A DNA stretch of 64,000 nucleotides, from positions 1,044,575 to 1,108,574 of the forward strand of contig CP070837.1 in NCBI GenBank assembly GCA_020341815.1, written 5' to 3'. Positions 3,751 through 61,318 of this stretch are shown here, one piece after another (the stretch's first letter is position 1; each line of letters opens with the position of its first letter). The position numbers and the translations under genes are program-made. This DNA comes from Candidatus Omnitrophota bacterium. GTDB taxonomy: Bacteria > Omnitrophota > Gorgyraeia > JAFGHF01. The notes beneath the pieces were generated by a model. That model was not told the origin of the DNA. It was given only the letters and a program-made list of their open reading frames with translations, and ran no database searches.

Positions 3751-3754
3751 TCTG

Positions 3755-3841
3755 GTGCGCAGGGCGAGATTTGAACTCGCACAGGGTTTCCCCCACTACC
3801 CCCTCAAAGTAGCGTGTCTACCAGTTCCACCACCTGCGCAA
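3755..3841 (-). tRNA. tRNA-Leu (anticodon GAG), type II with long variable arm, CCA encoded
   Basis: Manual fold of the reverse complement. Acceptor GCGCAGG/CCTGCGC, D-arm GTG-GAACTGGTAGA-CAC, anticodon stem CTACT/GGTAG with loop TTGAGGG, T-arm GCGAG-TTCAAAT-CTCGC, discriminator A, CCA. Confidence 0.85.
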
Positions 3842-3930: not shown

Positions 3931-5364
3931 TCATGATTTTTGTCTTTGCCTAACTTTCCATAAAAAATACAAGTCTTGGCTACGTATTGTTTCTTCTAGA
4001 TCACTTTTTGCCATTGTCCTTTTAGTGAGCTCTGCAATGATTTTGACTAGTCCAAGTGCACTGGCGGCAGCGATAAGTCCGTCCGGAAGAAGCCCAGAAT
4101 ACATGCCAAAAGATATAGCTCCGGTCCAAGCAATGATTTCTCGTCTTACGCCTTTAATCAATGAGCGTTGAGCTGATTTTATTCTAGTATCAAGTAAACT
4201 CAATTTAGGTCTGATTATATCTTGGAAAATTGCTTGAGCATCGCGTTTTGAAAAATTTTTACCACTTTTTCTGTATTCATTAATTGCCTTATTGAGAACA
4301 TTTCGAAATAAAATAAAAGATTCTTCCTCTCCAGCTCTAAGTTTAAGAATTTCTAAAGGATCAATATCCTCAATGAATGGAACTAAACAGGTCATATATT
4401 TTTGTATTATTTGATTCCGTTGTTCAATGTTTGGATCTAATGAGATTTCTCTCAAAAAATCAATATGGAGTATTCGTTCGGTAAGAAACGATGTATTAAG
4501 ACACTGTGCTGTTGCCAATTCAAAATTGATATTTTCGTAATTTTTTTTCGCTAGGTATTCTGCATATCCAATTTTTTTAAGAGCAGTTCTGGATAAATGA
4601 ATTTCTTTACCCTTTTTAATTTTGGCAATAATATGTGGTATTTTTTTTAAGGGCACTGGCATTTTTTCCGCTACATTAACTGTGGCTCCATGTTCAAGCA
4701 ATATTTCTGGTCCATGTGCATCTACAACATATAATCCTTTCTCCATTCTTACTGAAGCTTTGATTTGATTGTTGAATCGGTCGATTAGTTTTGTTAATGC
4801 TTTTTTTAATCTTCTATCATCTTTCTGTCCAAGAGAGTGTTTTGCTAAACAGTGCGTACAAAAATAGGGGGCTGTAATAGGGACAATCTTTTCTGCTTTT
4901 ATTAGAGGGCGTAGATAATTTAAAATAAGTAGGTCTTCAGCGAAATCTTTTTGAAATTTTCTTACATCAGATAAATTTTTTTTATTAGAGTGTTCAACGT
5001 GATCAGCTAAAAAATTCCGTATATAAACTTTATCGCTATAAAAAGCTGCGAATTGTGCCAATTGTTTTACGTAAGCCATCCTACAATCAAAAACAACGCA
5101 AGGCCATCGACTACCGCCGAGCGAAAATGAAGCAGAATGAGAAAACACAGATTCTTCCCTTGGCAATTTTTTGACAGAAGTAAGTTCCAATGATTGTTTA
5201 GAAAAATCGATAATATCGATTGGTGAGGCATGTTCAATCTGAAAAAGATTCAGTTTGCCATTACGCATAAATTTTGATTTATCAATCTGTTCAAATAAAA
5301 GATTTTTCATTATTTTCCTATTTACTGATATTAAGGAAAGGGTAAATTTACTGTTTGAATCCAA
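3931..5364 (-). CDS. hypothetical protein, 477 aa, AT-rich, no domain recognisable by eye
   Basis: Long uninterrupted ORF in a markedly AT-rich segment flanked by tRNA-Leu and tRNA-Gln. No motif I can assign. Confidence 0.5.
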   Translation of the reverse strand: MDSNSKFTLSLISVNRKIMKNLLFEQIDKSKFMRNGKLNLFQIEHASPIDIIDFSKQSLELTSVKKLPREESVFSHSASFSLGGSRWPCVVFDCRMAYVKQLAQFAAFYSDKVYIRNFLADHVEHSNKKNLSDVRKFQKDFAEDLLILNYLRPLIKAEKIVPITAPYFCTHCLAKHSLGQKDDRRLKKALTKLIDRFNNQIKASVRMEKGLYVVDAHGPEILLEHGATVNVAEKMPVPLKKIPHIIAKIKKGKEIHLSRTALKKIGYAEYLAKKNYENINFELATAQCLNTSFLTERILHIDFLREISLDPNIEQRNQIIQKYMTCLVPFIEDIDPLEILKLRAGEEESFILFRNVLNKAINEYRKSGKNFSKRDAQAIFQDIIRPKLSLLDTRIKSAQRSLIKGVRREIIAWTGAISFGMYSGLLPDGLIAAASALGLVKIIAELTKRTMAKSDLEETIRSQDLYFLWKVRQRQKS

Positions 5365-5409: not shown

Positions 5410-5483
5410 TGGCTGCCGAGCCAGGATTCGAACCTAGACTAAATGGTCCAGAGCCATTCGTGCTACCATTACACCACTCGGCA
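5410..5483 (-). tRNA. tRNA-Gln (anticodon CTG)
   Basis: Reverse complement folds with acceptor TGCCGAG/CTCGGCA, anticodon stem AATGG/CCATT with loop CTCTGGA, T-arm with TTCGAAT loop, discriminator G, CCA encoded. Confidence 0.8.
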
Positions 5484-5500: not shown

Positions 5501-6802
5501 TTATAACAGCTTTAGCGCCTGCGTCAATCTTGCACTAACTCTTTCCCTGCCTAAAGCTGCCATAGTCTCAAAAAGTCCCGGGCCCACTCTTTTGCCGGTA
5601 AGGGCTACCCTGACCGGGTGTATCAAATCCCCGCTTTTGATGCCCTCTTTGGCAATCAGGTCCCGGCAGCTATCCTCAACGGTCTTTATATCAAAAGAAT
5701 CTATTTTCTCTAAGACTGCGATTAGTTTGGTAAAGATATCCTTTGTGTTTTTCTTCTTCTGCAAGAATGTCTTTGCCTCAGGCGCAAACTCAATCTTATC
5801 CACAAAGAAAAAATCAGCCAACTCGGGGAAATCCGAAAGCTTCTTAACCCTTATCTTAAACAGTTCTACAATCTCGGTGAGCTTCTTTTTATCATAATCT
5901 TTATTGATATATTTTTTCTGAATCAAAAATGGCGCTATGAGCTCGGTTAATCTCTTTGTATCCAATTGCTGAATATACTGACCGTTCATCCACTCTAATT
6001 TTTCCGGATTAAATGCGGCGGCGGTCTTGAGCACTCTCTCCAGAGTAAACTCCCTGATTATCTCTTCTTTTGAGGCGATTTCCTGACGGGCGCCCAAAGA
6101 CCAGCCCAGAAGCGCCAGAAAGTTAAATAAAGCCTCCGGCAAATACCCCTGCTCGCGGTAATAAGAAACCGGCATTGCCCCTTTGCGCTTGGAAAGGCGC
6201 GAGCGGTCAGCCGCCACAATCAAAGGTATATGGGCAAAGCGCGGCAGGCTAAACCCTAAAGCCTCATAAATAGCCATCTGCTTAGGCGTATTGGAAATAT
6301 GGTCTTCGCCGCGGATGATGTGGGTAATTTTCATATCGTGGTCGTCAATTACGCAGGCAAAATTATAGGTCGGTGTGCCGTCGGATTTCATCAATACCTG
6401 ATCCTTAAAAGAACCGGCGGCAAACTCAATCGGGCCGCGGATTATATCGTCAAACCTGAAAGGCTTCTGGGGAACGCGTAAAATAATCGCCGTTCCTTCA
6501 GAATAGGCCTTTTTCTCATCCAGGAGTTTCTGGGCATATTTTTTATAAATAGGAAAACGTTGGCTTTGAAAATGAGGCCCCTCATCCCAATGCAAGCCCA
6601 GCCATTTAAGGTCTTCTAAAATCTGATCCAGATAAACCTTCTCCGAGCGGGCCTTATCGGTGTCCTCGATCCTCAAGACAAAGACTCCCTTGTTGTGGCG
6701 GGTGAACAGCCAGTTAAATAAAGCGGTCCTTACTCCCCCGATATGCAAATATCCCGTCGGGCTGGGCGCAAAGCGCGCTCTTACTATTTCTTTATCGGCC
6801 AT
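5501..6802 (-). CDS. gltX: glutamyl-tRNA synthetase
   Basis: N-terminus RFAPSPTGYLHIGGVRTALFNW (HIGH motif) and overall class I GluRS pattern. Lies 18 nt upstream of tRNA-Gln. Confidence 0.85.
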   Translation of the reverse strand: MADKEIVRARFAPSPTGYLHIGGVRTALFNWLFTRHNKGVFVLRIEDTDKARSEKVYLDQILEDLKWLGLHWDEGPHFQSQRFPIYKKYAQKLLDEKKAYSEGTAIILRVPQKPFRFDDIIRGPIEFAAGSFKDQVLMKSDGTPTYNFACVIDDHDMKITHIIRGEDHISNTPKQMAIYEALGFSLPRFAHIPLIVAADRSRLSKRKGAMPVSYYREQGYLPEALFNFLALLGWSLGARQEIASKEEIIREFTLERVLKTAAAFNPEKLEWMNGQYIQQLDTKRLTELIAPFLIQKKYINKDYDKKKLTEIVELFKIRVKKLSDFPELADFFFVDKIEFAPEAKTFLQKKKNTKDIFTKLIAVLEKIDSFDIKTVEDSCRDLIAKEGIKSGDLIHPVRVALTGKRVGPGLFETMAALGRERVSARLTQALKLL

Positions 6803-7328
6803 GCCTGGTGCCTTCCTCCAATGCCTTTTGATTAATTTCTATCAGATGCTGCTTATCCTTGGGAGCAATCTGGCGAAAAACCGACAAGACGCTCTCGAGT
6901 TTTAAAATATTTTTATTCTTCAAATAGGCCCCCAAAGCTACCATATTAGCCACGCGCACATCACCCAAGGAAGTGGCAATCTCGGTAAAAGAGATATTGC
7001 GCACATCTATTTTATCGGGCAAGGAGCCTGTCTTAATCAGGCTTGAATTCACCAAGGCCAGGCCCCCTTTTTTCACTCTTTCTTTAAACCTATCCCAGGA
7101 AGGCTGGTTAAAGACGAAAAGTGTATCCGTTTTATCTACATAAGGAGAGGCGATTTCTTCATCGGAGATAACCACCATACAATAGGCGCATCCGCCGCGC
7201 ATGGCCGCCCCATAAGAAGGCATCCAGGTCGTCTTTTTATTTTCCTCTAGCGCCGCCTGGGCCAGCACCTTACCCAGAAGCATTATCCCCTGTCCGCCGA
7301 AGCCGGCGCAGATAATCTCTTCTCTCAC
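6792..7328 (-). CDS. 2-oxoacid:ferredoxin oxidoreductase gamma subunit
   Basis: MREEIICAGFGGQGIMLLGKVLA ... typical POR/KOR gamma N-terminus. Last gene of the por delta-alpha-beta-gamma series. Confidence 0.8.
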   Translation of the reverse strand: MREEIICAGFGGQGIMLLGKVLAQAALEENKKTTWMPSYGAAMRGGCAYCMVVISDEEIASPYVDKTDTLFVFNQPSWDRFKERVKKGGLALVNSSLIKTGSLPDKIDVRNISFTEIATSLGDVRVANMVALGAYLKNKNILKLESVLSVFRQIAPKDKQHLIEINQKALEEGTRHGR

Positions 7329-7435
7329 CCCGCTCTTCCCTTTCTTCCTAACGCCAAGGCTTTATCCCCATCCTTTTCTTCTACCACCTTCGCCCATATC
7401 TCTTATACAAAGCATAGTATTTGGAAGGGCGGGGC

Positions 7436-7609
7436 TCATTTTAATGAAAAGGGTTTATTCACGCCCAACATTTTTTTCCATATTTTATAAGCTTTTTTAT
7501 TAAAAGTATACTTTAAGTGGAAATTGACAAATTTCAAATAATCATCCATTGATAGCCATTTTGCATCAGGAATACCTTTTTTAATAATGGGTAAATTTAA
7601 TTTTTTCAT
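7436..7609 (-). CDS. small ORF (57 aa), possible partner of the adjacent nucleotidyltransferase
   Basis: Manually translated as MKKLNLPIIKKGIPDAKWLSMDDYLKFVNFHLKYTFNKKAYKIWKKMLGVNKPFSLK. Below the ORF-track cutoff. Lies in a stop-codon-rich AT-rich spacer. Weakly similar to the 61-aa ORF at 51826-52011. Confidence 0.3.
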   Translation of the reverse strand: MKKLNLPIIKKGIPDAKWLSMDDYLKFVNFHLKYTFNKKAYKIWKKMLGVNKPFSLK

Positions 7610-7619
7610 TCTGCAATCT

Positions 7620-8150
7620 TTATATGCTTTCTAATATCTCGTTGTAGATTTCTTTTGTTCCATATTTTAGACAAAGTTTCTGGAATTTTTTGCTTTTGAA
7701 ATCTACCTCATTAATTCTGATTAAATTAATGATATCCGGCAAATCTTTAATATTACGGACCTTAGGATTATATTTAATTGAATGGAGCTTGAGCGCAATT
7801 AAATTGTATAATGAAGGGACTGTGAACTTTTGTCCCGCTATATTAATTTCTTTTCCATCTTTAATGATCTCGAGTAAAGTTTCTTTGTCCACAAACATAA
7901 AATCTATATCCCATAGATTATATTTGCTACTTTTAAGCCGAGTAAATACTTTCTGGGTATAGTCTTGTTTATAGCCTGCCTCCTTCAATAAGCCCGCTAT
8001 TTTTTCAAAATCCTCTTTAGTAATCAAAAAATCAACGTCTGCAGTCTGCCGCGTGTATTTATAATAATTAACGGCAAATCCGCCAACTAAAATACAAGAG
8101 ACGCCTGCTTTTTTAGATATAGCTGAAATGAGATGAAAAACTGTAGTCAT
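7620..8150 (-). CDS. minimal nucleotidyltransferase-fold protein (DUF6036/AbiEii-like), AT-rich insert in the por operon
   Basis: N-terminal ILVGGFAVNYY ... ADVDFLI matches the hG[GS]...D.D NTase signature. Paralogous to ORF 51971-52417. Its start codon overlaps the porB stop (ATGA). Confidence 0.6.
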   Translation of the reverse strand: MTTVFHLISAISKKAGVSCILVGGFAVNYYKYTRQTADVDFLITKEDFEKIAGLLKEAGYKQDYTQKVFTRLKSSKYNLWDIDFMFVDKETLLEIIKDGKEINIAGQKFTVPSLYNLIALKLHSIKYNPKVRNIKDLPDIINLIRINEVDFKSKKFQKLCLKYGTKEIYNEILESI

Positions 8151-8875
8151 TTAAACTTCCCCAAAGGAAATGTCTTGGTCATCTCACTCCCCACCCATTG
8201 CCAGGCACCCTGAGGCGTCTTTTTCCAGCAGACAGGACAGGGAGAGAGTATCTCTACAAGCGAAAAACCTTTATTCTCAAGCTGATTTATAAAGGCCTCT
8301 TTCAGGGCCTTTTTGGTCTTGATTACCCCGCCTACAGAATCCAGGGCCACCCGCTCCAGGGACCTTACAGCCGGCAGAACAGCTAACAACTCACAAATCT
8401 TTAAAGGGTATCCCTCAAGGGCGGGATTTCGCCCCAGAGGAGTGGTAGTGGTCTTCTGCTTCAATAAGCTTGTCGGGGCCATCTGCCCACCGGTCATTCC
8501 GTAAATCGCGTTATTGATAAAAGCCACGCTTAAGTTTTCTCCGCGATTAGCCGCATGGATTGTCTCGGCAGTGCCGATAGCCGCTAAATCCCCGTCGCCC
8601 TGATAGGTAAAGACAAACCTATTCGGCTGCGTGCGCTTAATGCCCGTAGCCACTGCCAGGGCGCGGCCGTGAGCAGCCTCACAGCAGTCAAAGTTCCAGT
8701 AATCATAGGCCACTACCGCACAACCCACGGGACAGACGGCAATAGTCTTTTCCCTGATTCCCAGCTCATCAATCAGCTCACAAATCAGCCGATGTACTAT
8801 GCCGTGTCCGCAGCCTGCGCAATAATGCGTATCTACATCTCGCAATGATTCAGGACGGGTAAATATCTTTTCCAA
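8147..8875 (-). CDS. 2-oxoacid:ferredoxin oxidoreductase beta subunit (TPP-binding)
   Basis: CAGCGHG ... GDGD TPP-binding pattern typical of POR/KOR beta. Confidence 0.85.
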   Translation of the reverse strand: MEKIFTRPESLRDVDTHYCAGCGHGIVHRLICELIDELGIREKTIAVCPVGCAVVAYDYWNFDCCEAAHGRALAVATGIKRTQPNRFVFTYQGDGDLAAIGTAETIHAANRGENLSVAFINNAIYGMTGGQMAPTSLLKQKTTTTPLGRNPALEGYPLKICELLAVLPAVRSLERVALDSVGGVIKTKKALKEAFINQLENKGFSLVEILSPCPVCWKKTPQGAWQWVGSEMTKTFPLGKFK

Positions 8876-8878: not shown

Positions 8879-9928
8879 TTATATCCTTTCCAAAATCTCT
8901 TCTTCCGTGGGGATGCCTCCGCCTGCGCGGCCATAAAAATCAATCCTAGCACGCCCATTAACCGCTAAGCGCACATCCTCAACCATCTGCCCGTAGGACA
9001 TCTCGGTAACAAAAAATCTTAATTTTTTCTTTTTCTTCTTAAGTAAATCCTCAAATATGCCGACGGGGAAAGGCCAGAGACTGATGGGCCGCAAAAGGCC
9101 GGCCTTCTTACCCTTCTTACGCAGACTCTGGACCGCACTGCGGGCAATACGTGCTGTGCTTCCATAAGCTACCAAAATTATCTCACTATCCTCTAAATGC
9201 ATTCCTTCGAAGCGCTGCTCTTTCTGGGTAATCTGCGCATATTGCTTCTGGAGAACCTTATTGAATTTCTCCAGGTCCCCTTCCTGCATATAAAATGACT
9301 TTACTATATTAGGAGCCTTCCCTTTACAACCCGTCAGCGCCCAGGGTTTCTTAACCTGTTTTTTACCGGATGCACTGGAAGTAATTGTAATAGGCTCCAT
9401 CATCTGCCCCAGCATCCCATCACCCAATATTATTGCGGGCGTGCGGTATTTATCGGCGAGGTCAAAGCCTAAAAATACGAGGTTGTATGCCTCCTGAACC
9501 GAAGAAGGGGCAAGCACAATACAATGATAGTCCCCATGGCCGCCTCCTTTGGTGGCCTGAAAATAATCCGACTGAGCGGGAGCGATATTACCTAAGCCCG
9601 GTCCCCCGCGCATAATGTTTACAATCAGGCACGGCAGGCGCGCCCCGGCCAGATAAGAAATCCCCTCCTGTTTAAGGCTGATTCCCGGGCCTGAAGAAGA
9701 GGTCATTGCCCGCCGGCCGCTGGCCGCAGCTCCCATTACCATGCTAATAGCGGCCAGTTCGCTTTCTGCCTGCACAAATACACGATTTGCCCGGGGCATG
9801 TTTTCAGCCATATAAGCGGTAAGCTCATTTTGGGGCGTAATCGGATAACCGGCGTAAAAATCGCATCCGGCGCGAATTGCTCCTTCAGCAATGGCTTCAT
9901 TTCCGCTTATCAGTATCTTCTCACGCAT
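8879..9928 (-). CDS. 2-oxoacid:ferredoxin oxidoreductase alpha subunit
   Basis: ISGNEAIAEGAIRAGCDFYAGYPITP N-terminus typical of POR/KOR alpha. Confidence 0.85.
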   Translation of the reverse strand: MREKILISGNEAIAEGAIRAGCDFYAGYPITPQNELTAYMAENMPRANRVFVQAESELAAISMVMGAAASGRRAMTSSSGPGISLKQEGISYLAGARLPCLIVNIMRGGPGLGNIAPAQSDYFQATKGGGHGDYHCIVLAPSSVQEAYNLVFLGFDLADKYRTPAIILGDGMLGQMMEPITITSSASGKKQVKKPWALTGCKGKAPNIVKSFYMQEGDLEKFNKVLQKQYAQITQKEQRFEGMHLEDSEIILVAYGSTARIARSAVQSLRKKGKKAGLLRPISLWPFPVGIFEDLLKKKKKKLRFFVTEMSYGQMVEDVRLAVNGRARIDFYGRAGGGIPTEEEILERI

Positions 9929-9930: not shown

Positions 9931-10131
9931 TTACTTATACACCTCGATACAACAATCCGGGCATATCCGGGCGCAAAGCGCACAGGCAGAACAGTCTCCC
10001 TCGGTAAAACAGACAAAGCGCACCCCGCGCTTATTTAAAGATTTACTTAAGGTAATCAGCTTTTTGGGACAACTATCTATGCAAAGACAACAACCCTTGC
10101 ATTTTTCTTTTTTTATTTTTATCTTACCCAT
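9931..10131 (-). CDS. 4Fe-4S ferredoxin-type delta subunit of 2-oxoacid:ferredoxin oxidoreductase
   Basis: Two CxxCxxCxxxCP cluster motifs in 66 aa. Immediately upstream of the alpha subunit. Confidence 0.75.
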   Translation of the reverse strand: MGKIKIKKEKCKGCCLCIDSCPKKLITLSKSLNKRGVRFVCFTEGDCSACALCARICPDCCIEVYK

Positions 10132-12019
10132 TTATCATTTTCTCGTGTTGCGCCGACAGGCCTATTTCTGCATTAAGCACGCTATTAACTATACCCTCGG
10201 CGCTCAATCCATGCTTTTCCAGAAGAAATTCCCGTTTTGCGTGGGGAATAAAGACAGAAGGAAGAGCAATCCTTATTACGCGCACCTTTTCAAGGCCTTC
10301 TCTTTCCAGAAACTCCAACACCGCCGAGCCAAACCCGCCTTCTGCGACCCCTTCCTCTACCGTAACTATCGTCTCAACTTCAATGCAGAGCCTCTTGAAC
10401 AATAACCCATCAAGCGGTTTTACAAAACGGGCATTGATTACGGTGCAATCTATGCCCTGTGAGCTTAATATCCGCGCTGCCTCCAGGGCAGGATAAACCA
10501 TGCTCCCCAAGGCCACAATCGCCAGGTCTTTACCTCGTCTCAAAACTTCAGCCTTGCCGCATTGAATCTCGGAAGGCTTATAGTCTTCAGAAAACAATTC
10601 ACCTCTTTGAGGGACTTCTCCTTTTGGATATCTGATAGCTAAAGGCCTTGACTGGCCAGAGGCAAACTCCAGCATCTTCTCTAATTCTTCTCCGTCTTTA
10701 GGAGCCAAAAGCGTTAAATTGGGAATATGCCTGAGATATGCCACATCAAAAATACCCTGATGGGTAGCGCCGTCCTCTCCGACGATACCTGCGCGGTCAA
10801 GACATAAGACTACGGGTAAGCTCTGCAGACAGACATCGTGGATAAGCTGGTCGTAAGAACGCTGTAAAAAAGTAGAATAAATAGCCACAAAGGGCCTTAA
10901 GCCTCTCCGGGCTAGCCCGGCGGCAAAACCTACGGCGTGGGCCTCGGCCATTCCCACATCATAAAACCTTTTAGGAAAACTCTGAGCAAACTTATCTAAT
11001 CCCGTGCCTTCGGCCATAGCCGCAGTAATGCCTGCAATCTTTTCGTCCTTTTGGGCCAGAGAAATTAATTTTTCGCTGAAGACTTGAGTAAAAGTTTTAT
11101 TCGTAACTTTATTGTCTCCACCGTTGGCGCTTATCCCGTGAAATTTCTCGGGGATTCGCTCAGCCTGAGAATATCCTTTGCCTTTTACGGTAACCGCATG
11201 GATAAGCACCGGTTCTTTCAACTTAAGCACATTTCTTAAAGTGCGCACCACTTCTTTAACATTATGCCCGTCGATGGGGCCGAAATAACGAAAGCCCAAT
11301 TCTTCAAAGATTATTCCCGGCACTAAAAGATTTTTTAAGCTTTCCTCTAAGCGCTTAGCAGCAGAAAACAGTTTATTCCCCAGGCGGGGAACCCTCTTCA
11401 CCAGATTTTCTATATCCTGCCTTATGCGGTTGTATATCGGCATGGTAAGTATGCGGTTAAGATAGCGGCTGAGCGCCCCCACGCTTTTGGAAATAGCCAT
11501 CTTATTATCATTGAGCACGACTACCAAATCTTTATGCAGCTGTCCGGCATGATTAAGGGCCTCAAAGGCCATTCCTCCGCCTAAGGCGGCATCGCCGATT
11601 ACCGCTACAACCTTAGAGTTTTTCTCTGTATCGGCACAGGCAAGCCCCAGGGCCGTAGAAATAGAAGTGGAGCCATGGCCAGTCGTAAACGTATCATAGA
11701 CGCTCTCCTCTTTATTGGGAAAACCGCTTATCCCCTGCCACTGCCTGAGCGTCTTTAGTCTCTCTCTGCGCCCGGTTAAAATTTTATGGGCATAGGCCTG
11801 ATGCCCCACGTCCCAGACTATTTTGTCTTTCGGGGTATCAAGGCAATAGTGCAAGGCAATAGCCAGTTCCACCGCTCCCAGGCTGGACGCCAGATGCCCG
11901 CCGGTCACAGAGACGGTTGCGATAATCTCCCGGCGAATCTCCTGGGCAAGAAGTGAAAGCTCTTTTAGGGCGAGCTTTTTTAAATCAGCGGGATTACTGA
12001 TTTGTTCTAATAAGCTCAT
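10124..12019 (-). CDS. dxs: 1-deoxy-D-xylulose-5-phosphate synthase
   Basis: ELSLLAQEIR ... GGHLASSLGAVEL ... GDGA TPP motif. Transketolase-like layout of ~630 aa. Confidence 0.9.
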   Translation of the reverse strand: MSLLEQISNPADLKKLALKELSLLAQEIRREIIATVSVTGGHLASSLGAVELAIALHYCLDTPKDKIVWDVGHQAYAHKILTGRRERLKTLRQWQGISGFPNKEESVYDTFTTGHGSTSISTALGLACADTEKNSKVVAVIGDAALGGGMAFEALNHAGQLHKDLVVVLNDNKMAISKSVGALSRYLNRILTMPIYNRIRQDIENLVKRVPRLGNKLFSAAKRLEESLKNLLVPGIIFEELGFRYFGPIDGHNVKEVVRTLRNVLKLKEPVLIHAVTVKGKGYSQAERIPEKFHGISANGGDNKVTNKTFTQVFSEKLISLAQKDEKIAGITAAMAEGTGLDKFAQSFPKRFYDVGMAEAHAVGFAAGLARRGLRPFVAIYSTFLQRSYDQLIHDVCLQSLPVVLCLDRAGIVGEDGATHQGIFDVAYLRHIPNLTLLAPKDGEELEKMLEFASGQSRPLAIRYPKGEVPQRGELFSEDYKPSEIQCGKAEVLRRGKDLAIVALGSMVYPALEAARILSSQGIDCTVINARFVKPLDGLLFKRLCIEVETIVTVEEGVAEGGFGSAVLEFLEREGLEKVRVIRIALPSVFIPHAKREFLLEKHGLSAEGIVNSVLNAEIGLSAQHEKMING

Positions 12020-33006: not shown

Positions 33007-33094
33007 TGGTGCCGAGAGTGGGAGTCGAACCCACACGGAGCTAAGCTCCAATGGATTTTAAGTCCATATCGTCTACCAGTTCCGACATCTCGGC
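33007..33094 (-). tRNA. tRNA-Leu (anticodon TAA), type II
   Basis: Acceptor GCCGAGA/TCTCGGC, anticodon stem ATGGA/TCCAT with loop CTTAAAA, long variable arm, T-arm GTGGG-TTCGACT-CCCAC, CCA encoded. Confidence 0.85.
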
Positions 33095-33096
33095 AA

Positions 33097-33771
33097 TCAA
33101 TTATTTTCACCAAAAACAGTTTTACTCTTCTGCCAACCTCTATAAGAAACGATGCATTCCTGAGCTAATTTCATTTTTCTTTTTAACCCAAGAGCATGTT
33201 TATAATAACATTTTTTCGCAATCTCTCTCGCTGCCATCTTACCATATTTTAATACCCATTTAGTTTTAGTAGTACGTTCTTTGTGAATTTTACCATGAAC
33301 TCTTAATAGTAATGTTATCGCACCATCTAACCATTTGACAAATTTTTCGGAACCAGAATAGATCCTTAAGCTCCATTGTTCTCTATTATTAGTTGGGTGT
33401 ATCCATCGACGTATAGAACCATCGCCATCGATTAAACCTCTTAAAAAATCAATAAAGTGTTGGTTGGGTACTTCTATTGCACCCAAAGTTAATGATTTAT
33501 TTTGCGTGAGCCCAATAGATAATAGAAAATCATAGAATCTAACATTCGAAAATTGAATTTGATAAGCTTGATTAATTTTATTTTTATTTTTAGTACCGAC
33601 CTTATTAATCAATCCAAGTGTATTTTTAAGTTCTTTAAGAAATATAAAATCCTTTGAAGTAATATTTATATGCCTTCCATCGCAACTTAAACTTCCATCG
33701 CTGGTAATTAACCCCACTAAATACCAAAGATTTGTTCCTTTGATTTTTAAATCTTTTCGTTTATGTGGCAT
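33097..33771 (-). CDS. free-standing double-motif LAGLIDADG homing endonuclease
   Basis: Two LAGLIDADG motifs, LVGLITSDGSL and LRGLIDGDGSI, about 100 aa apart. AT-rich. Bounded by intact tRNA genes 3 and 9 nt away. Confidence 0.8.
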   Translation of the reverse strand: MPHKRKDLKIKGTNLWYLVGLITSDGSLSCDGRHINITSKDFIFLKELKNTLGLINKVGTKNKNKINQAYQIQFSNVRFYDFLLSIGLTQNKSLTLGAIEVPNQHFIDFLRGLIDGDGSIRRWIHPTNNREQWSLRIYSGSEKFVKWLDGAITLLLRVHGKIHKERTTKTKWVLKYGKMAAREIAKKCYYKHALGLKRKMKLAQECIVSYRGWQKSKTVFGENN

Positions 33772-33780
33772 TTATCAATC

Positions 33781-33855
33781 TGGAGGCGGCTGTCGGATTC
33801 GAACCGACGAATAAGGGTTTTGCAGACCCCCGCCTTCCCACTTGGCTAAGCCGCC
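33781..33855 (-). tRNA. tRNA-Cys (anticodon GCA)
   Basis: Acceptor GGCGGCT/AGCCGCC, discriminator U, anticodon stem GGGGT/ACCCT with loop CTGCAAA, T-arm GTCGG-TTCGAAT-CCGAC. Confidence 0.8.
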
Positions 33856-34496
33856 CTTTCTATTCTCTCAAGCAAAACTCTGGAAAGATGCGTTTTGGTT
33901 TTTGCTTTTATTTCCTGCTTATATCCGTTGCTATCGGCAAGCAGAACATCGATGCCTTTTTTCCCGAAGGGAAGTTTATTTATTTTCATCTGCGTTGCCA
34001 CAATCAAATCCAGATTTTTCTCTTTTAATTTATCCTGCGCATTTTTCTGCAGGTTTTCTGTTTCCAGGGCAAAGCCGACCAGCATCTTCTTCCCTTTTTT
34101 ACCGCCGAGGCTCTTCAAGATATCGGGATTCTGCTTTAATTTCAGCTCTATTTCCTTTTTATTGCCTCTTTTGATTTTCTTCTTCGCTGTTTTCTTGACA
34201 TAGAAATCACAAACAGCCGCTGTCATTATCAGGCAATCGCACCAGCCAAATACTTTCTCAAGCTCTTTTTTCATCTGGCGCGCCGTAACTACATCTATCA
34301 AGCGCACGCCTTGCGGCCTCAATAATGAAGTCGGCCCGCTAATCAGAATGACCCGATGTCCTCTTTTTACGGCTTCTTTTGCGATTTCATAACCAAGAAA
34401 GCCCGTAGAATAATTAGAGATAAATCGCACCGGATCTATAGGCTCACGCGTCGGCCCGGCAGTTATCAGGATATTGAGCCTTTTTTTTAGCTTCAC
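33846..34496 (-). CDS. coaB: phosphopantothenate--cysteine ligase (stand-alone CoaB domain)
   Basis: ILITAGPTREPIDPVRFISNYSTG motif of Dfp C-terminal (CoaB) domains. The last 3 codons overlap the tRNA-Cys 5' end. Confidence 0.8.
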   Translation of the reverse strand: MKLKKRLNILITAGPTREPIDPVRFISNYSTGFLGYEIAKEAVKRGHRVILISGPTSLLRPQGVRLIDVVTARQMKKELEKVFGWCDCLIMTAAVCDFYVKKTAKKKIKRGNKKEIELKLKQNPDILKSLGGKKGKKMLVGFALETENLQKNAQDKLKEKNLDLIVATQMKINKLPFGKKGIDVLLADSNGYKQEIKAKTKTHLSRVLLERIERAA

Positions 34497-51825: not shown

Positions 51826-52011
51826 ATGAAAGGAATTCTCAAATTAAACAAACACAATAAAGATAAAGAAATAGACTTTGAATTAAATTATCTTAAGTCA
51901 TTATCCTTTCAGCAGAGGCTGCAAATGTGTTTGCAAAAGTCTAAAGAAATGAAGGAGCTTTTAAAGAAAAGTGGGCACAGAAAGACTTTTGAAATTATTA
52001 AAAGGACATAA
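51826..52011 (+). CDS. small ORF (61 aa), putative partner of the downstream nucleotidyltransferase
   Basis: AT-rich. Overlaps the NTase start by 41 nt in another frame. Weak similarity to the 57-aa ORF at 7436-7609 (shared ...D/N-YLK-x-h-x-F segment). Confidence 0.3.
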   Translation: MKGILKLNKHNKDKEIDFELNYLKSLSFQQRLQMCLQKSKEMKELLKKSGHRKTFEIIKRT

Positions 52012-52417
52012 GGTAGATTTCGTAATTATCGGCGCTACCGCCTTTCCTCTCTACGGCTATGCGCGTGCTACATTGGATATAGATATTTTTATTCGCCCCG
52101 AGGAAAATAATGCCAAAAAGACCTGGCGGGCTTTAAGGAAATTCGGGTATGATTTAAGCGATGTAACTATAGAAGATTTAATGAGTAAAAAATTATTAAT
52201 TCGTCAATACAACGTAGAAACAGACATTCACCCTTTTGTAAAAGGCATCACTTTTAAAAGGGTATGGAAGAACAAACTGCGGGCAAAATTTGGCCATACC
52301 TTTGTATATTTCGCTGCGCTTGAGGATTTGATCAAGATGAAGAAGGCTGCGGCGCGGCCTCAGGATTTAGAAGATCTTAAATATTTAAACAGATTAGCCA
52401 AAAAACATAAAAGCTAA
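51971..52417 (+). CDS. minimal nucleotidyltransferase-fold protein, paralogue of ORF 7620-8150
   Basis: VDFVIIGATAFPLYGYARATLDIDIFI NTase signature. AT-rich. Ends 1 nt before tRNA-Glu. Confidence 0.6.
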   Translation: MGTERLLKLLKGHKVDFVIIGATAFPLYGYARATLDIDIFIRPEENNAKKTWRALRKFGYDLSDVTIEDLMSKKLLIRQYNVETDIHPFVKGITFKRVWKNKLRAKFGHTFVYFAALEDLIKMKKAAARPQDLEDLKYLNRLAKKHKS

Positions 52418-52418: not shown

Positions 52419-52496
52419 GACCCCATCGTCTAGCCCGGCCTAGGACAAGAGCTTTTCAAGCTCTCGACACCGGTTCGAATCCGGTTGGGGTCGCCA
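52419..52496 (+). tRNA. tRNA-Glu (anticodon TTC)
   Basis: Acceptor GACCCCA/TGGGGTC, D-arm GTCT-AGCCCGGCCTA-GGAC, anticodon stem AGAGC/GCTCT with loop TTTTCAA, T-arm ACCGG-TTCGAAT-CCGGT, discriminator G, CCA. Confidence 0.85.
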
Positions 52497-53610: not shown

Positions 53611-54669
53611 ATGCCTTGCAATTTTAGCGTTATTGATTTATTTTCTGGATGTGGCGGACTGTCGTACGGCTTTGTTAGGTCGGGGTATAATGTCTTGCTG
53701 GGTATAGATAATGATCCGGTAGCCCTCAAAACTTTCAAGCTCAACCATTCCGGATCGGATACTATAATAGCTGATATTGCAGGCATTTCCGGACAGGATA
53801 TCCTGAAAGCTGTGGGCAGAAGACAAATAGACGTTGTTATAGGCGGACCGCCATGTCAGGGATTTTCGCTTTCTGGCCCCAGAAAATTTAGTGATCCCAG
53901 AAACAAATTATACCTTTCTTTTATAAGGCTGGTTAAAGAACTGAAGCCTAGGGCATTTCTGATTGAGAATGTTCCCGGCATTATGAGTCTCTACAAAGGA
54001 CAGATAAAAGACGAAATTATTGGCAGATTTTCGAAAATGGGTTATAAAGTGAGTTGCAGTAAGCTGAATTCGGCAGACTACGGCGTTCCCCAACTGAGAA
54101 ACAGGGTTTTTTTTGTGGGAATATATAAGGCGAAAGAGTACTTTAAGTTCCCCCCTCCAGTGTTAAATAAAGAATGTTATATTGTTGCCGAAGAAGCCAT
54201 CGGCGATCTGCCAGGTTTGGAGGATCGTATCGGCACAGATCCAGCCCCTTATCCCGGAAACGGCGAACTCACGAGATATCAGAAATATATGAGGCAAGGT
54301 TCTCAGTATATACATAATCATATCGGAACGCGCCATGCCGAAATGACAAAGCGCGTTATATCTCTCGTTCCGGAAGGATGTAATTATAAAAGTCTGCCGC
54401 CGGAATATGCCAATACCAGAAATTTTCATGTTGCATGGACAAGGTTCCACAGCAAAAAGCCGGCACCGACCGTTGACACTGGCCATAGACACCACTTCCA
54501 TTATTTATATGACAGGGTTCCTACTGTCAGAGAATGCGCAAGGCTGCAATCTTTTCCGGACATTTTTATTTTCATCGGAAATAAATCACAACAATATTCC
54601 CAGGCAGGAAATGCAGTTCCTCCATTCACGGCACAAGCTATTGCGGAAGAAATGAGGCATTATTTATGA
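53611..54669 (+). CDS. DNA (cytosine-5)-methyltransferase, copy 1
   Basis: Motif I DLFSGCGGLSYGF, motif IV GGPPCQGFS, motif VI ENVPG, motif VIII QLRNRVFFVG, motif X GNAVPPF. Confidence 0.9.
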   Translation: MPCNFSVIDLFSGCGGLSYGFVRSGYNVLLGIDNDPVALKTFKLNHSGSDTIIADIAGISGQDILKAVGRRQIDVVIGGPPCQGFSLSGPRKFSDPRNKLYLSFIRLVKELKPRAFLIENVPGIMSLYKGQIKDEIIGRFSKMGYKVSCSKLNSADYGVPQLRNRVFFVGIYKAKEYFKFPPPVLNKECYIVAEEAIGDLPGLEDRIGTDPAPYPGNGELTRYQKYMRQGSQYIHNHIGTRHAEMTKRVISLVPEGCNYKSLPPEYANTRNFHVAWTRFHSKKPAPTVDTGHRHHFHYLYDRVPTVRECARLQSFPDIFIFIGNKSQQYSQAGNAVPPFTAQAIAEEMRHYL

Positions 54670-56081
54670 GATACCAGATACCAGAAGAATATTATTGTAG
54701 GTTGCACCACATACGTCCGAGGTTTAAAAATAATATAGAAAATGTTCTTATTTATATGGCTACCGAGATATCTAAAATTCGAAGAAAGAGCAAAAGAGAA
54801 TTCGATAAAGAAGTTAATAAAGCAATTAAAAAATTCCCAGGGAATGCAACGAAAAAGATTAAGACAATCAACAATTGGCGCACAGAAATCTCCTCTCTGT
54901 TTGGTTTTATCCGCACCAGCAGATCAAAAGATAAGTCGTGGCCAGCACTGAGGGCGACAGAGCTGGCGGATAAACAGGATTTGGTGCATTCGTTCAAGCT
55001 TTTTCTGTACCATTTTCAGTATCCCGGAGGACATCTCAAGCCTCACGAAAATGCTGAAGTTATCAGGCAAGGTATCAAATTCAGACCGGCACCTTTTATT
55101 TTGAAATTACTGCATAGCGCTGAAAAAAATGAAAAGACCAGGAAAGGTATCACCAAGCCCGAGCTGACCCACTGTGTTTTCAATGACCTGAGAGTCACGC
55201 GTGACGGGGAAGGTCCGGAATCCGTATGGGAGCGCATTAAAGAAAACAGGAAGAAAAAGGTTCAATATGACTGCAGGGGGGATGTTATACGTTATGCCGG
55301 AGATATTCTCGACTATATGGTAACGGCTAACTTACTTACTCCCCACGGGCAGAAATATTTTATAAATACCCTGGAGAAAAACGCGGTGCAGAAATTTATG
55401 GAGTCAAAAGATTGGTTTAGCAAGTATGACCGTTATATAGATAAAAGAAATGTTACCTTAGCGCAGATAAATAGTCTTCAGGAAGCATGGTTTGAATATG
55501 TAAATATGCCCAGGGAAGAGATATTCGAAACGGATGCTTTGGCTTTTATCGCCAGAGACGAGACAGAATATGCGAAGTTGCGAAAACAGATCGTAAGCAG
55601 TTTTATGGAAAAGCTCGAAGAGCCTAGTGAAATTGGCACGAAGGAAATAGGGGATGTGGGCGAAAATCTTGTGCACGGGCACGAATGTATGAGGATTAAA
55701 TTGCGCGAGCGTACAGACTTAATACATCTTATTCGGTGCATACCGGATCATCTCGCTGCCGGTTACGATATCAGATCTGTCGAGGCAGATGCTACATACA
55801 GATATATAGAGGTTAAAACTACCATAAGCAACAGCGAAATTGATTTTACCAGAATTCATCTGACGCCTGTGGAATGGACTGCGGCAGACACTCTTAAAAG
55901 CAGATACTTTGTCTACAGACTGCTCTTAAGCAAGAGGTCAAGAAAATTATTTCTGCTTCGCGATCCGGTGGGCCAGTACAAACAAGAAAAACTATCAATG
56001 ACGCCGCGCAACGGGGCAGATATTGTTTTCAGCCCTGCAAGATGCGGTGAATATACGGAGCTTCTGGAGTGGAGAGATTAA
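54666..56081 (+). CDS. protein with C-terminal DUF3883 (restriction-endonuclease-like fold) domain and uncharacterised N-terminal region
   Basis: C-terminal GENLVHGHE ... GYDIRSVEADATYRYIEVKTT ... IHLTPVEWTAA ... YFVYRLL matches the DUF3883 pattern. ATGA-coupled to the upstream MTase and overlaps the downstream MTase. Confidence 0.6.
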   Translation: MRYQIPEEYYCRLHHIRPRFKNNIENVLIYMATEISKIRRKSKREFDKEVNKAIKKFPGNATKKIKTINNWRTEISSLFGFIRTSRSKDKSWPALRATELADKQDLVHSFKLFLYHFQYPGGHLKPHENAEVIRQGIKFRPAPFILKLLHSAEKNEKTRKGITKPELTHCVFNDLRVTRDGEGPESVWERIKENRKKKVQYDCRGDVIRYAGDILDYMVTANLLTPHGQKYFINTLEKNAVQKFMESKDWFSKYDRYIDKRNVTLAQINSLQEAWFEYVNMPREEIFETDALAFIARDETEYAKLRKQIVSSFMEKLEEPSEIGTKEIGDVGENLVHGHECMRIKLRERTDLIHLIRCIPDHLAAGYDIRSVEADATYRYIEVKTTISNSEIDFTRIHLTPVEWTAADTLKSRYFVYRLLLSKRSRKLFLLRDPVGQYKQEKLSMTPRNGADIVFSPARCGEYTELLEWRD

Positions 56082-57484: not shown

Positions 57485-57999
57485 TATATGAAAGCCGCAC
57501 ACTAGGAGAGTCGCCATTTGATTTTGATATTAGCTGGCCCTTTCCGGAAGGACAGAGAAAGTTGCTTGAAGCAGCCGTAACTAAAATAAAAATAGAATCA
57601 GCATCCCAAATTGATAAATTTGAAGAATCTTTCAATGAGGAGATTGCGCAGCATGGTTATATGTGGGACAAGAAAGATAAAAGCACATGTTCTCTCTGGC
57701 GGCCCGATTTCAGAATGTCTGTTGATTTCTATAACGCAAAGGAAAAAATTGCAGTTGAAATTGAAAAGACAGAGGTTAAAAGAATTATCCACGACGTATT
57801 AAAGCTAGTGAACGGCTCCTTAACCTTTGTGCCCAAAGTGAGATATGGAGTAATTATTCATCCGCACACATATAAACGCACATCAGGTAAAGAGAGTGTA
57901 TTTGCATCACGGGTTGTAAGCGAAGTTTCCTTCTATTTCAGGCGTTTGATCGGAAACACCTTATTAAATGATGTTCTTTTTATAGTTTATAATTTTTGA
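57481..57999 (+). CDS. hypothetical protein (172 aa), candidate PD-(D/E)xK nuclease
   Basis: Likely start MIYESRTLGE is ATGA-coupled to the MTase-Vsr stop. RPDFRMSVDF ... IAVEIEKTEVK is weakly PD-ExK-like. Confidence 0.4.
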   Translation: MIYESRTLGESPFDFDISWPFPEGQRKLLEAAVTKIKIESASQIDKFEESFNEEIAQHGYMWDKKDKSTCSLWRPDFRMSVDFYNAKEKIAVEIEKTEVKRIIHDVLKLVNGSLTFVPKVRYGVIIHPHTYKRTSGKESVFASRVVSEVSFYFRRLIGNTLLNDVLFIVYNF

Positions 58000-58148
58000 G
58001 CTGGTTTAAGGTTTTTCTTCGTCGGTAGAGTTTTCATGTTTCTTTGACTCGAATTCCCCGATAGAAAAGTGTTATGTTCCCAGAATTGCTGCACTTTATC
58101 TAGACGGCAAGAGGAAAACTTGGTTGTATAGGAATAAAGGCAAATATC

Positions 58149-58436
58149 TTGATTGGACGCGATTTTGGAATAACTTCTCGTTTTTTAATTAGAGGATTGA
58201 ATATAAAGAAGCTCCTGGCTCTGGCAATTCTAATCTGCCTAATATCCCTAACTGTTTTTGGCCAAGAAAAGAATTACCAAATGAAAACAGGCATATTAAA
58301 GACTTATGGAGAACCATTTTGGAAAGGCGAAGGCAAGCAGCGAGAAGTTTGGTATTACCCACGCCAAAGAATGTTTATTTATTTTGAAGGAGATAGAGCT
58401 ATTGAGATTGATGTAATTGCAGGGGAGAAGACATAA
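58149..58436 (+). CDS. small exported or lipoprotein-like hypothetical protein
   Basis: Hydrophobic N-terminus LLALAILICLISLTVFG. 95 aa. Confidence 0.4.
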   Translation: MIGRDFGITSRFLIRGLNIKKLLALAILICLISLTVFGQEKNYQMKTGILKTYGEPFWKGEGKQREVWYYPRQRMFIYFEGDRAIEIDVIAGEKT

Positions 58437-58439
58437 CGA

Positions 58440-59099: not shown

Positions 59100-59328
59100 A
59101 ACTCAACGCTAAAGTAAAGATCTGGATGATCTTAGCCCCTTTGTGATAATGGCGACAATAGCCACAAAGGCTTTTTGCTATCCAGCAGAGGTTGAGGATA
59201 TGAGCGGAGAAAAATGCGTAGGATAATCTTTCGCCATAGTGGCCAAAAAATGCTATCCCTATGCAAAGGGGATAATGGATAAATAGCAGTTATTCTCATT
59301 TTTATAAAGTTTATGGAGTAAAAGGAAG

Positions 59329-61311: not shown

Positions 61312-61318
61312 TAAAACG

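Follow-up and report, generated by a model that had tools for sequence, protein, structure and literature searches.

Two small, AT-rich genes lie between the beta and gamma subunit genes of an oxidoreductase operon in a Candidatus Omnitrophota bacterium, and their position raises the question of whether they serve the enzyme or form a separate element that has lodged there. We addressed it within a window of 64,000 nucleotides, the whole stretch of contig CP070837.1 that was analyzed. The locus contains the following features, listed in the direction of transcription:

9931 to 10131, minus strand: delta subunit (Pfam Fer4, 2x[4Fe-4S])
8879 to 9928, minus strand: alpha subunit (Pfam POR_N/PFOR_II)
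8147 to 8875, minus strand: beta subunit, TPP-binding (TPP_enzyme_C), the host gene 5' of the insert
7620 to 8150, minus strand: NT176, a 176-aa minimal nucleotidyltransferase (NTase), MenT1/AbiEii-like, putative toxin
7436 to 7609, minus strand: s57, a 57-aa basic protein, the conserved partner of NT176 and putative antitoxin
7329 to 7435, minus strand: host-like structured spacer from the s57 stop to the GTG of gamma (GC 0.495)
6792 to 7328, minus strand: gamma subunit (PF01558 POR, 4e-38), the host gene 3' of the insert

Pfam matches identify the host genes as a four-subunit 2-oxoacid:ferredoxin oxidoreductase with delta, alpha, beta and gamma in a row. An earlier note on this DNA had named the operon porDABG. 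The four-subunit architecture stands, but the pyruvate specificity implied by that name finds no firm support: the NCBIfam matches are to generic 2-oxoacid, 2-oxoglutarate or pyruvate models, and because all of them fall under their cutoffs they do not settle the substrate. The note also described an AT-rich, 176-aa NTase between beta and gamma whose ATG overlaps the beta stop. Both features are present in the sequence, with a GC content of 0.318 in the NTase gene against about 0.50 in its flanks and the NT176 ATG and beta TGA sharing ATGA. What had been taken for a 290-bp AT-rich spacer downstream turns out to be 10 nt, the 174-nt s57 gene and a 107-nt region of host-like composition, so that the insert, 7436 to 8150, consists of exactly two ORFs. 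The C-terminus of beta is intact, ending in FPLGKFK-stop here and in FPLGRIK-stop or FPLGRVK-stop in relatives, and the insert probably leaves the workings of the host operon unchanged.

Comparison with 80 relatives places the two genes outside the ancestral operon. Beta and gamma are adjacent in 78 of the 79 relatives having both genes, separated by at most 129 nt (median 25), compared to 818 nt in the window. The one departure, a Pirellulales locus (L042) with a different small gene, 23S_rRNA_IVP, at the beta-gamma junction, means that the operon is not quite as universally contiguous as had been claimed. The delta-alpha-beta-gamma order is common to 75 of the 80; four others (L011, L016, L024 and L038, of which the L024 locus starts just upstream of beta) gave no match for delta or alpha, and L040 is without an adjacent gamma. 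In the Omnitrophota relatives L001 to L004 and L006, the wider dxs-delta-alpha-beta-gamma-gltX synteny is kept. The NT176/s57 insert is absent from the operon in every relative (0/80), including these five syntenic Omnitrophota. The earlier note, which had proposed this comparison, allowed that relatives might carry the same gene as a conserved, GC-normal operon component; they have no such gene there. A site within the operon, a start codon tied to the stop of beta and the lack of a terminator would all suit functional accessories of the oxidoreductase, acting for example through regulatory nucleotidylation of a subunit. Set against the absence from 80 of 80 relatives, the foreign composition and the more than 20 unrelated contexts described below, such a role is scarcely credible.

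The base composition of the pair departs from that of its surroundings in sharp steps, from 0.51 to 0.32 and 0.24 and back to 0.50, that fall exactly at the ORF boundaries (GC of beta 0.514, NT176 0.318, s57 0.241, the 107-nt spacer 0.495 and gamma 0.479). GC3 is 0.32 in NT176 and 0.26 in s57, compared to 0.52-0.58 in the neighboring genes. In GC, the 715-nt interval ranks lowest in the 64-kb window for a stretch of this size, at the 0.014th percentile of all 715-nt windows (mean 0.448, sd 0.045). Part of this low GC could reflect the Lys/Asn/Ile-rich composition of the two proteins.

Beyond the window, the same two genes recur in the same order in more than 20 unrelated genomic contexts. In L116 they separate gap from pgk, and in L084 they lie between the gene for DAHP synthase and tyrA. 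The L081 copy is beside trkA/trkH, and that of L085 has an IS200-type transposase and a Fic pair as neighbors. In L129 and L130, the module heads a toxin-antitoxin island with HEPN/MNT and MNT/HepT pairs; at L108, an AbiEi/AbiEii pair is nearby. The closest NTase homologs reach 81-84% identity, compared to 69% for the best beta match among species-representative genomes. In most loci the GC of the module is lower than that of both measured flanks, and only two distinct loci have a module that is not lower than either. No locus has a module gene upstream of the NTase, where the neighbors are unrelated host genes. A 477-aa, low-GC ORF in the window (3931-5364) was considered as a counterpart of the 471-aa ORF upstream of the L081 module, and the two show no similarity. 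Scanning viral contigs with the NTase alignment found no relatives, which we count as neutral evidence. Taken together, composition and distribution support the view that the two genes at 7436-8150 form an autonomous module of foreign origin, of the toxin-antitoxin or defense type.

Sequence conservation across the module loci is confined to the two ORFs, and inspection by eye of 80 nt upstream and 160 nt downstream in about 30 loci revealed no shared end sequences or terminal repeats. With no conserved ends, the module does not qualify as a mobile cassette bounded by integron attC sites or by IS or MITE-type repeats. On the gamma side, the 7329-7435 spacer has a closing stem in which the bases just after the s57 stop pair with a purine-rich stretch before the gamma start (z -3.1), and the beta-gamma spacers of two other Omnitrophota (L002 and L006) are spacer-spanning hairpins too (z -6.0 and -4.3). 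The 107-nt spacer is probably the ancestral beta-gamma intergenic region. The region has no Rfam match or riboswitch at E ≤ 1, and no terminator-like site was found between s57 and gamma. Although the module contains 8 sigma-70-like matches, compared to 3.3 ± 1.8 in shuffles, AT-rich DNA is expected to give them, and we do not accept them as evidence of an internal gamma promoter. Because the module has no intergenic space of its own, overlaps its ATG with the beta stop and is followed by no terminator-like site, it probably uses the operon promoter and is translationally coupled to beta. Its co-directional, terminator-free arrangement, which leaves the operon unbroken, would explain why the insert is tolerated.

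The family of NT176 bears directly on what the module might do. Four Pfam models match it above their gathering scores: NTP_transf_5 (PF14907, 1.2e-9; 38.6 bits against a cutoff of 31.2, over model positions 69-240 of 249), AbiEii (PF08843, DUF1814, 8e-8; 32.9 bits against 22.5, over residues 18-165), Aminoglyc_resit and DUF2204. No function is assigned to the PF14907 family. PF10706 scores 26.8 against a cutoff of 21 but covers residues 7-89 only. Of the three families that had been suggested for this protein, AbiEii is thus upheld, while DUF6036 falls just under its cutoff and MNT (PF01909) is absent; a DUF6036/DUF2204 assignment applies instead to the second NTase of the window, NT148, discussed below.

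The predicted active site is preserved in detail. Across 63 homologs, G23-G24, D38-x-D40 and D81/D83 are invariant or nearly so, corresponding to pol-beta motifs I and II and the third acidic residue, and the glycines and DxD align to the GG...DVD motif of MenT1. In the same alignment, invariant T36, D38, K121 and D136 match MenT1 T39, D41, K137 and D152, all of which are essential for MenT1 toxicity (PMC10435456). K121 and D136 represent the toxin-specific motifs III (Lys) and IV (Asp), whose equivalents are needed for toxicity in MenT1 (K137/D152) and MenT3 (K189/D211) (PMC10435456, PMC7450476). T36, two residues before the catalytic D38, occupies the phospho-acceptor position, with MenT1 T39 and MenT3 S78 as its counterparts. 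MenT1 is also the top match in a profile search of PDB sequences and the top fold match by two methods, for which the predicted structures were made from database homologs. These results support a description of NT176 as MenT1/AbiEii-like in sequence, modeled fold and putative active-site residues.

The same evidence speaks to a different kind of enzyme, a small-molecule NTase of the ANT(2'')-Ia or Lnu type that would inactivate an antibiotic or metabolite with s57 as an accessory. The NCBIfam Lnu(P) model gives 19.6 bits against a cutoff of 300, MenT1 comes first by three methods, and the MenT-specific Lys, Asp and phospho-acceptor Thr are invariant, all of which makes this reading very improbable. 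ANT(2'')-Ia and LnuA have no partner protein, and the MenT-type Lys/Asp/Thr signature is what NT176 conserves instead. ANT and Lnu genes are not known to be tied obligately to a small protein that co-evolves with them.

An abortive-infection or antiphage function of the AbiE type, in which the NTase would be released on phage infection, overlaps with the selfish toxin-antitoxin module that we favor and differs from it in role only. The AbiEii Pfam match above cutoff, the weak matches to PADLOC AbiEii models, the NCBI name "AbiEii/AbiGii toxin family" carried by several NT176 homologs, and the toxin-antitoxin and defense genes near the L129/L130 and L108 loci are all in keeping with it. Yet in this genome and several others the module stands alone inside housekeeping operons rather than in defense islands, it lacks an AbiEi-type partner, and the PADLOC matches are far from confident (best E 2.5e-4). 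We regard a dedicated AbiE-type role as unlikely.

The second gene of the module is as constant as the first. Wherever the sequence of a related locus extends far enough 3', an s57 homolog follows the NTase stop at a distance of -4 to +20 nt. These homologs are 56-79 aa long (most 56-64) and 39-84% identical, and the s57 ORF is a real gene. The wider family comprises 277 clusters at 50% identity, almost all of them stand-alone proteins of 54-85 aa. Its conserved, extended N- and C-terminal motifs read LPII..LSMDDY...VPF; within LSMDDY, Tyr24 is invariant and Ser20 nearly so. In an AF2 model of s57 (pLDDT 78), the N-terminal 20 residues are extended and residues 21-35 and 38-50 form a helical hairpin. 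Searches for relatives found no significant match in Pfam, NCBIfam, PADLOC or PHROGs, no fold match in the PDB (Foldseek) and no similarity to MenA1 or another known antitoxin in sequence or fold. The best hit of a sequence-profile search of the PDB, a La-related protein at E 0.43, was taken as chance.

Which of the two proteins would be the toxin is suggested by what happens when the module erodes. Orphan s57 genes exist without the NTase (L105, L108), and in decayed modules an NTase that is truncated or has lost its DxD is still fused to an intact s57 (P0441, P0438); these orphans and decayed copies amount to a handful of cases. No NTase without s57 was seen among the loci. A "Rosetta stone" search returned only the decayed NTase-s57 fusions and no informative domain fusions. 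From the orphans, the decayed fusions and the constant presence of s57 beside the NTase, we infer that s57 is the harmless partner.

A reversal of these roles, as in type VII systems, would make NT176 an antitoxin that nucleotidylates a small toxin, s57, just as MNT/MntA modifies a tyrosine of HEPN/HepT. An enzyme-first order agrees with the usual arrangement of antitoxin before toxin and with that of MNT before HepT at L129 and L130, invariant Tyr24 and nearly invariant Ser20 in LSMDDY could accept a nucleotide, and s57, with its pI of 10.2, could bind nucleic acid. Orphan copies and decayed modules that keep s57 would, however, be lethal were s57 the toxin. HEPN/MNT (HepT-MntA) modules likewise have two genes with a minimal NTase first, but there the MNT is a PF01909 antitoxin and the partner a HEPN RNase. 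NT176 and s57 match neither PF01909 nor any HEPN family, s57 has no other toxin fold, and NT176 is nearest the toxin MenT1, whose phospho-acceptor Thr it keeps. Overall, we consider the reversal decidedly unlikely.

Among known systems, the closest comparison is MenAT1 of Mycobacterium tuberculosis (Rv0078B-Rv0078A; PDB 8AN4, 8AN5, 8RR5). It shares with NT176/s57 a short (~180-196 aa) DUF1814-type NTase and a small, helical partner without a DNA-binding domain (68 aa, compared to 57 aa for s57, whose helices are predicted; PMC10435456). In contrast, identity between the NTases is only 20-22%, s57 has no detectable similarity to MenA1, the partner here lies downstream and has extended terminal motifs, and the family is centered on Omnitrophota rather than Actinobacteria. 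AbiE (AbiEi-AbiEii, type IV), MenAT3 and MenAT4 share the four-motif pol-beta-like NTase core and are likewise mobile and scattered. In MenAT1, AbiE and MenAT3/4, the antitoxin gene is upstream (PMC7450476, PMC10435456). The NTase-first order of NT176/s57 is the reverse, which counts against the toxin-antitoxin reading. The module does not have the MenAT/AbiE operon form with an upstream antitoxin (AbiEi/COG5340, COG4861 or MenA1), as its partner is downstream and matches no antitoxin family.

A second NTase in the window had been described as a paralog of the first, paired with a similar small ORF. Its features are as follows:

51826 to 52011, plus strand: s61, a 61-aa ORF that overlaps NT148 by 41 nt
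51971 to 52417, plus strand: NT148, a DUF6036/DUF2204 NTase
52419 to 52496: tRNA-Glu, directly after NT148

The second NTase, its 61-aa ORF and the tRNA-Glu are all present, but NT148 is not a close paralog. It aligns with NT176 at 33% identity over 46 residues only, its best Pfam matches are DUF6036 and DUF2204, and it has more than 3500 homologs. Nor are the small proteins similar: s57 and s61 are unrelated by BLASTP (E 7.7) and by profile-profile comparison with hhalign (0.7% probability). Gene order also differs, with the small ORF first at this locus and the NTase first at 7436-8150. NT148 homologs in three other contexts (L119, L120-122 and L123-126) are likewise preceded by an s61 homolog, with the 41-nt overlap conserved. 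By these comparisons, the second locus is a conserved two-gene module with a different NTase family and an unrelated small partner. Each small ORF is conserved together with the NTase beside it, so neither module is called into question by the dissimilarity of s57 and s61. The idea of a repeated toxin-antitoxin-like or defense-like architecture therefore survives in that each locus is a conserved two-gene module, but the window holds two different NTase and small-protein modules, of different families and opposite gene order, rather than a repeat.

The DUF6036/DUF2204 modules resemble NT176/s57 in belonging to the same NTase superfamily, in having a basic partner of about 60 aa and low GC, and in being abundant in Omnitrophota, scattered between housekeeping genes. 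They differ in Pfam family, in the position of the small gene, which is upstream with a 41-nt overlap, and in the unrelated small protein itself. A literature search found no paper mentioning DUF6036.

The NT176/s57 module is most likely a selfish toxin-antitoxin element and no part of the oxidoreductase. On balance, we favor a specific version of this reading, in which a mobile NTase toxin and the antitoxin encoded downstream of it were acquired horizontally and are transcribed together with the host operon. The bicistronic module would have inserted between the last beta codon and the ancestral beta-gamma hairpin. NT176 would block translation by extending the 3' ends of tRNAs, or of a similar RNA acceptor, with added nucleotides, and s57, made by coupled translation just downstream of NT176, would be a protein antitoxin. 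By binding across the active-site face of NT176 through its extended N- and C-terminal motifs, s57 would neutralize the enzyme. MenA1 blocks the MenT1 active site and induces auto-phosphorylation of T39 (PMC10435456, PMC11375011); by analogy, s57 may also trigger auto-phosphorylation of Thr36. Gamma would be expressed by read-through from its own ribosome-binding site. A module of this kind would be selfish or addictive, and it might act in abortive infection. NT176 and s57 are both basic (pI 9.2 and 10.2, respectively), a property that is unusual for a simple toxin-antitoxin complex and counts against the reading.

A broader version is more doubtful, and we offer it tentatively. It holds that NT176/s57 belongs to a widespread toxin-antitoxin family, centered on Omnitrophota, that combines a MenT1-like, tRNA-modifying toxin with a new kind of downstream, 57-residue antitoxin and has specialized in settling within essential operons. 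On this view, the module would insert in the direction of transcription, at a stop codon or beside one, and would bring neither promoter nor terminator with it. It would then depend for its expression, and for its persistence, on host genes whose loss or silencing the cell cannot afford.

If the favored reading is right, the MenT/AbiEii toxin family would gain a compact member whose gene order is reversed and whose antitoxin, from a family that has no Pfam entry, is without known relatives. Antitoxin-induced auto-phosphorylation has so far been studied in mycobacterial MenAT and Streptococcus AbiE, and NT176/s57 would provide a new handle on it. Omnitrophota genomics preprints mention toxin-antitoxin systems in general terms only. 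The locus would suggest that, in the streamlined genomes of uncultured bacteria, such modules spread by lodging in operons of central metabolism, such as those of the oxidoreductase and gap-pgk, while leaving them unbroken. Annotators who meet two small AT-rich genes within an otherwise conserved operon would then read them as a selfish insert and not as a new enzyme subunit.

Within the window, the 176-aa nucleotidyltransferase NT176 and its 57-aa partner s57, together the module, lie inside an operon whose four oxidoreductase subunits were confirmed by Pfam.

10124-12019, minus strand: dxs
9931-10131, minus strand: delta subunit, ferredoxin-like (Fer4)
8879-9928, minus strand: alpha subunit (POR_N/PFOR_II)
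8147-8875, minus strand: beta subunit (TPP_enzyme_C), GC 0.514
7620-8150, minus strand: NT176, 176-aa ORF, GC 0.318
7436-7609, minus strand: s57, 57-aa ORF, GC 0.241
7329-7435: 107-nt spacer, GC 0.495
6792-7328, minus strand: gamma subunit (PF01558), GC 0.479
5501-6802, minus strand: gltX

Because the NCBIfam matches, all sub-threshold, were confined to models of generic type (2-oxoacid, 2-oxoglutarate and pyruvate), we name the enzyme a four-subunit 2-oxoacid:ferredoxin oxidoreductase rather than specifically POR, as in the porDABG of the earlier note. The ORF map agrees with that note in placing the NTase between beta and gamma, with its ATG overlapping the beta stop codon as ATGA. What had been read as a 290-bp AT-rich spacer is instead a 10-nt gap, the 174-nt s57 gene and a 107-nt host-like spacer. 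The GC shift is abrupt, coincides with the ORF boundaries of NT176 and s57, and recurs at third codon positions (GC3 of 0.32 in NT176 and 0.26 in s57, against 0.52-0.58 in neighbouring genes). Among stretches of equal length in the 64 kb, the 715-nt module interval has the lowest GC, more than 3 sd under the mean; the AT-rich module reported amid ~50% GC neighbours is thereby confirmed.

The window derives from a Candidatus Omnitrophota MAG, and NT176 and s57 match NCBI entries at 100% identity. For operon comparison, we retrieved 80 genomic loci that carry a beta-subunit relative. Gamma lies downstream of beta in 79 of them, and the gap between the two is at most 129 nt in 78 of these 79 (median 25), compared with 818 nt in the window. 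Relatives of the NTase or s57 are encoded in none of the 80, and the five closest Omnitrophota loci show the full dxs-delta-alpha-beta-gamma(-gltX) synteny without an insert. The operon, once called universally contiguous, is so in 78 of 79 relatives; the exception is a Pirellulales MAG (L042), in which a different small gene of 148 aa (1924-2370), a member of the 23S_rRNA_IVP/four-helix-bundle family (Pfam 6e-43), occupies the beta-gamma junction. This junction thus tolerates inserts, and, it appears, repeatedly.

The C-terminus of the window's beta subunit is complete, ending in FPLGKFK where its relatives end in FPLGRIK, and the 107-nt spacer after s57 has a closing stem that spans it (z -3.1). 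Strong, spacer-spanning hairpins also fill the beta-gamma intergenic regions of L002 (3153-3275, z -6.0) and L006 (6733-6835, z -4.3), while that of L001 is weak (z -0.55). The Omnitrophota hairpins run from just past the stop codon of the preceding gene to the gamma ribosome-binding region, and may serve in translational coupling or mRNA stability. From the intact beta C-terminus and a spacer hairpin like those of relatives, we infer that NT176 and s57 probably entered after the last beta codon and ahead of the ancestral intergenic hairpin. The window NTase begins MTTVFHLIS, two residues shorter at its N-terminus than the family consensus MxYPTxFHLIS, and the first module codons may therefore have been remodelled by the junction with the beta stop (8142-8150). 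We conclude that the module is an insert using the host operon rather than an operon component, and have high confidence in its being a unit of two genes that was acquired and is autonomous.

There is no intergenic space upstream of the module, no terminator-like site was found between s57 and gamma, and the gamma GTG has a purine-rich stretch before it. Most likely, the operon promoter would transcribe the module, NT176 would be translationally coupled to beta, and read-through would carry transcription from the module to gamma. The AT-rich module also contains promoter-like matches; its composition predicts them, and they are not evidence of an internal promoter. An Rfam search of the module region matched no family.

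We examined s57 in 30 metagenome loci with NTase relatives and in contigs of selected homologues. In every locus with sufficient 3' sequence, an s57 homologue lies directly 3' of the NTase, at a gap of -4 to +20 nt; these homologues are 39-84% identical to s57 and 56-79 aa long (most 56-64). Six residues are invariant (P7, L19, M21, Y24, F27 and F54), and the motifs LPII, LSMDDYLKFV and VPF are conserved. Such pairing and conservation mark s57 as a real gene and an obligate partner of the NTase. An exhaustive profile search gave 277 clusters at 50% identity, nearly all stand-alone proteins of 54-85 aa. No family matched in Pfam, NCBIfam, PADLOC or PHROG, and the PDB held neither a sequence nor a fold match. 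In an AF2 model (pLDDT 78), the N-terminal 20 residues are predicted to be extended, and a helical hairpin (21-35 and 38-50) comes after them.

NT176 scores above the Pfam cutoffs for NTP_transf_5, AbiEii, DUF2204 and Aminoglyc_resit, the last over its N-terminal half only. Its family exceeds 842 database clusters, mostly labelled Omnitrophota, with many members of ~178 aa that are 64-84% identical. By three methods its closest solved relative is MenT1 (Rv0078A), the toxin of M. tuberculosis MenAT1: MenT1 was the best match of a profile of 63 NTase homologues against PDB sequences (E 0.004) and ranked first in Foldseek with an AF2 model of the NTase (pLDDT 92; E 5e-9), as it did in a second fold comparison. 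Substituting T39, D41, K137 or D152 abolishes MenT1 toxicity (PMC10435456), and T39 is its auto-phosphorylation site (PMC11375011). These four residues align to T36, D38, K121 and D136 of NT176, all invariant in the family.

Close NTase homologues turn up in unrelated surroundings. Most point the same way as the genes beside them (upstream gene in 18/22 and downstream gene in 12/17 distinct loci with a callable neighbour), often at very short gaps. In L116, an 81%-identical NTase and s57 copy (507-1227) separates gap (GAPDH C-terminal domain) from pgk, leaving just 29 and 27 nt on its two sides, a second case of a conserved housekeeping pair being split. Other homologues lie between DAHP synthase and prephenate dehydrogenase (L084), beside trkA/trkH (L081), and adjacent to an RHH/Fic pair and an IS200-type transposase (L085); in L128, from a MAG labelled Saganbacteria, a UvrD-type helicase precedes the homologue. 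In L129 (3001-6347) and L130 (2912-6225), NTase and s57 head toxin-antitoxin islands, followed by HEPN+MNT, a third kind of NTase (164 aa, DUF2204/Aminoglyc_resit) with an 83-aa ORF, and MNT+HepT; the 83-aa ORF overlaps its NTase by 4 nt, again in NTase-first order. In most loci the module has lower GC than either measured flank, and in all distinct loci but two it is lower than at least one of them. The closest NTase match (84% identity) is nearer than the closest beta match (69%), which is only suggestive, as different collections were searched. Neither conserved non-coding ends nor repeats were found around the module across loci, and the viral contigs searched held no NTase copies. Pairing, mobility and a MenT/AbiEii-like NTase support, for the main locus of the window, the general interpretation of a toxin-antitoxin or defense module.

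A second locus lies on the plus strand before tRNA-Glu, where the 61-aa s61 (51826-52011) precedes NT148 (51971-52417), a DUF6036/DUF2204 NTase by Pfam, with a 41-nt out-of-frame overlap. NT148 has >3500 homologue clusters, and we found no mention of DUF6036 in the literature. Since s61 (49-56% identity) and the overlap are conserved in three independent contexts, this is a second genuine two-gene module. Homologues of s61 always end in IIKRT; in one of these contexts, L120, the gene ahead of the pair encodes a 4Fe-4S ferredoxin (nuoI-like) and belongs to an NADH dehydrogenase cluster. Similarity between the two NTases is confined to the region of the catalytic motif (46 residues at 33% identity), and s61 and s57 are unrelated and stand in opposite gene order. 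The repeated paralogous architecture suggested earlier thus holds thematically, as two NTase/small-ORF modules, and not in its parts.

Beyond tRNA-Glu (52419-52496), three ORFs extend to 56081: a 159-aa ORF of no family, a probable C5 DNA methyltransferase (53611-54669; PPCQGFS and ENV motifs read by eye) and a BpuJI-type restriction endonuclease (54666-56081; Pfam 1.6e-100). As a group they resemble a restriction-modification element that has integrated at the tRNA. A 477-aa minus-strand ORF without a Pfam match (3931-5364, GC 0.29-0.35), between tRNA-Leu (3753-3839) and tRNA-Gln (5410-5483), looks like another foreign insert beside tRNA genes. Further low-GC islands lie at 33035-33950, 57887-60140 and 60404-61671 (GC 0.35-0.36, window mean 0.448).

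Which module gene might be the toxin is suggested by unpaired and decayed copies. Two loci carry an orphan extra s57 with no NTase in front, 90-91% nucleotide-identical to the module s57 over exactly the ORF: L105 (copies at 3932-4109 and 5884-6061, the orphan 2.0 kb downstream of the full module) and L108 (3585-3762 and 7545-7722, 4.0 kb downstream), where the copies bracket genes for AbiEi and a truncated AbiEii on the opposite strand. These orphans may be solitary antitoxins or recombination scars. Three database proteins (P0441, 172 aa; P0438, 96 aa; P0444, 142 aa) fuse a partial NTase to an intact s57. The NTase part is internally truncated in P0441, which has lost the DxD motif (QADVLT), and in P0438; P0444 retains only its C-terminal part, perhaps because the contig stops there. 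The fusions resemble decayed modules retaining the small partner, a pattern expected if s57 were harmless and NT176 were not. No NTase without s57 was seen among loci with enough 3' sequence. Although the cases are few, together they favour the NTase as toxin. MenA1 and AbiEi are encoded upstream of their toxins (PMC7450476, PMC10435456), whereas s57 lies downstream of the NTase and is unrelated to MenA1; that both module proteins are basic (pI 9.2 and 10.2) also speaks against a simple MenAT1 analogy. On balance we favour, with moderate confidence, the specific mechanism of an NTase toxin with s57 as antitoxin. The NTase itself belongs to the known MenT/AbiEii-like kind; the module, which is compact and Omnitrophota-centred, departs from that kind in having a downstream partner of a new family.
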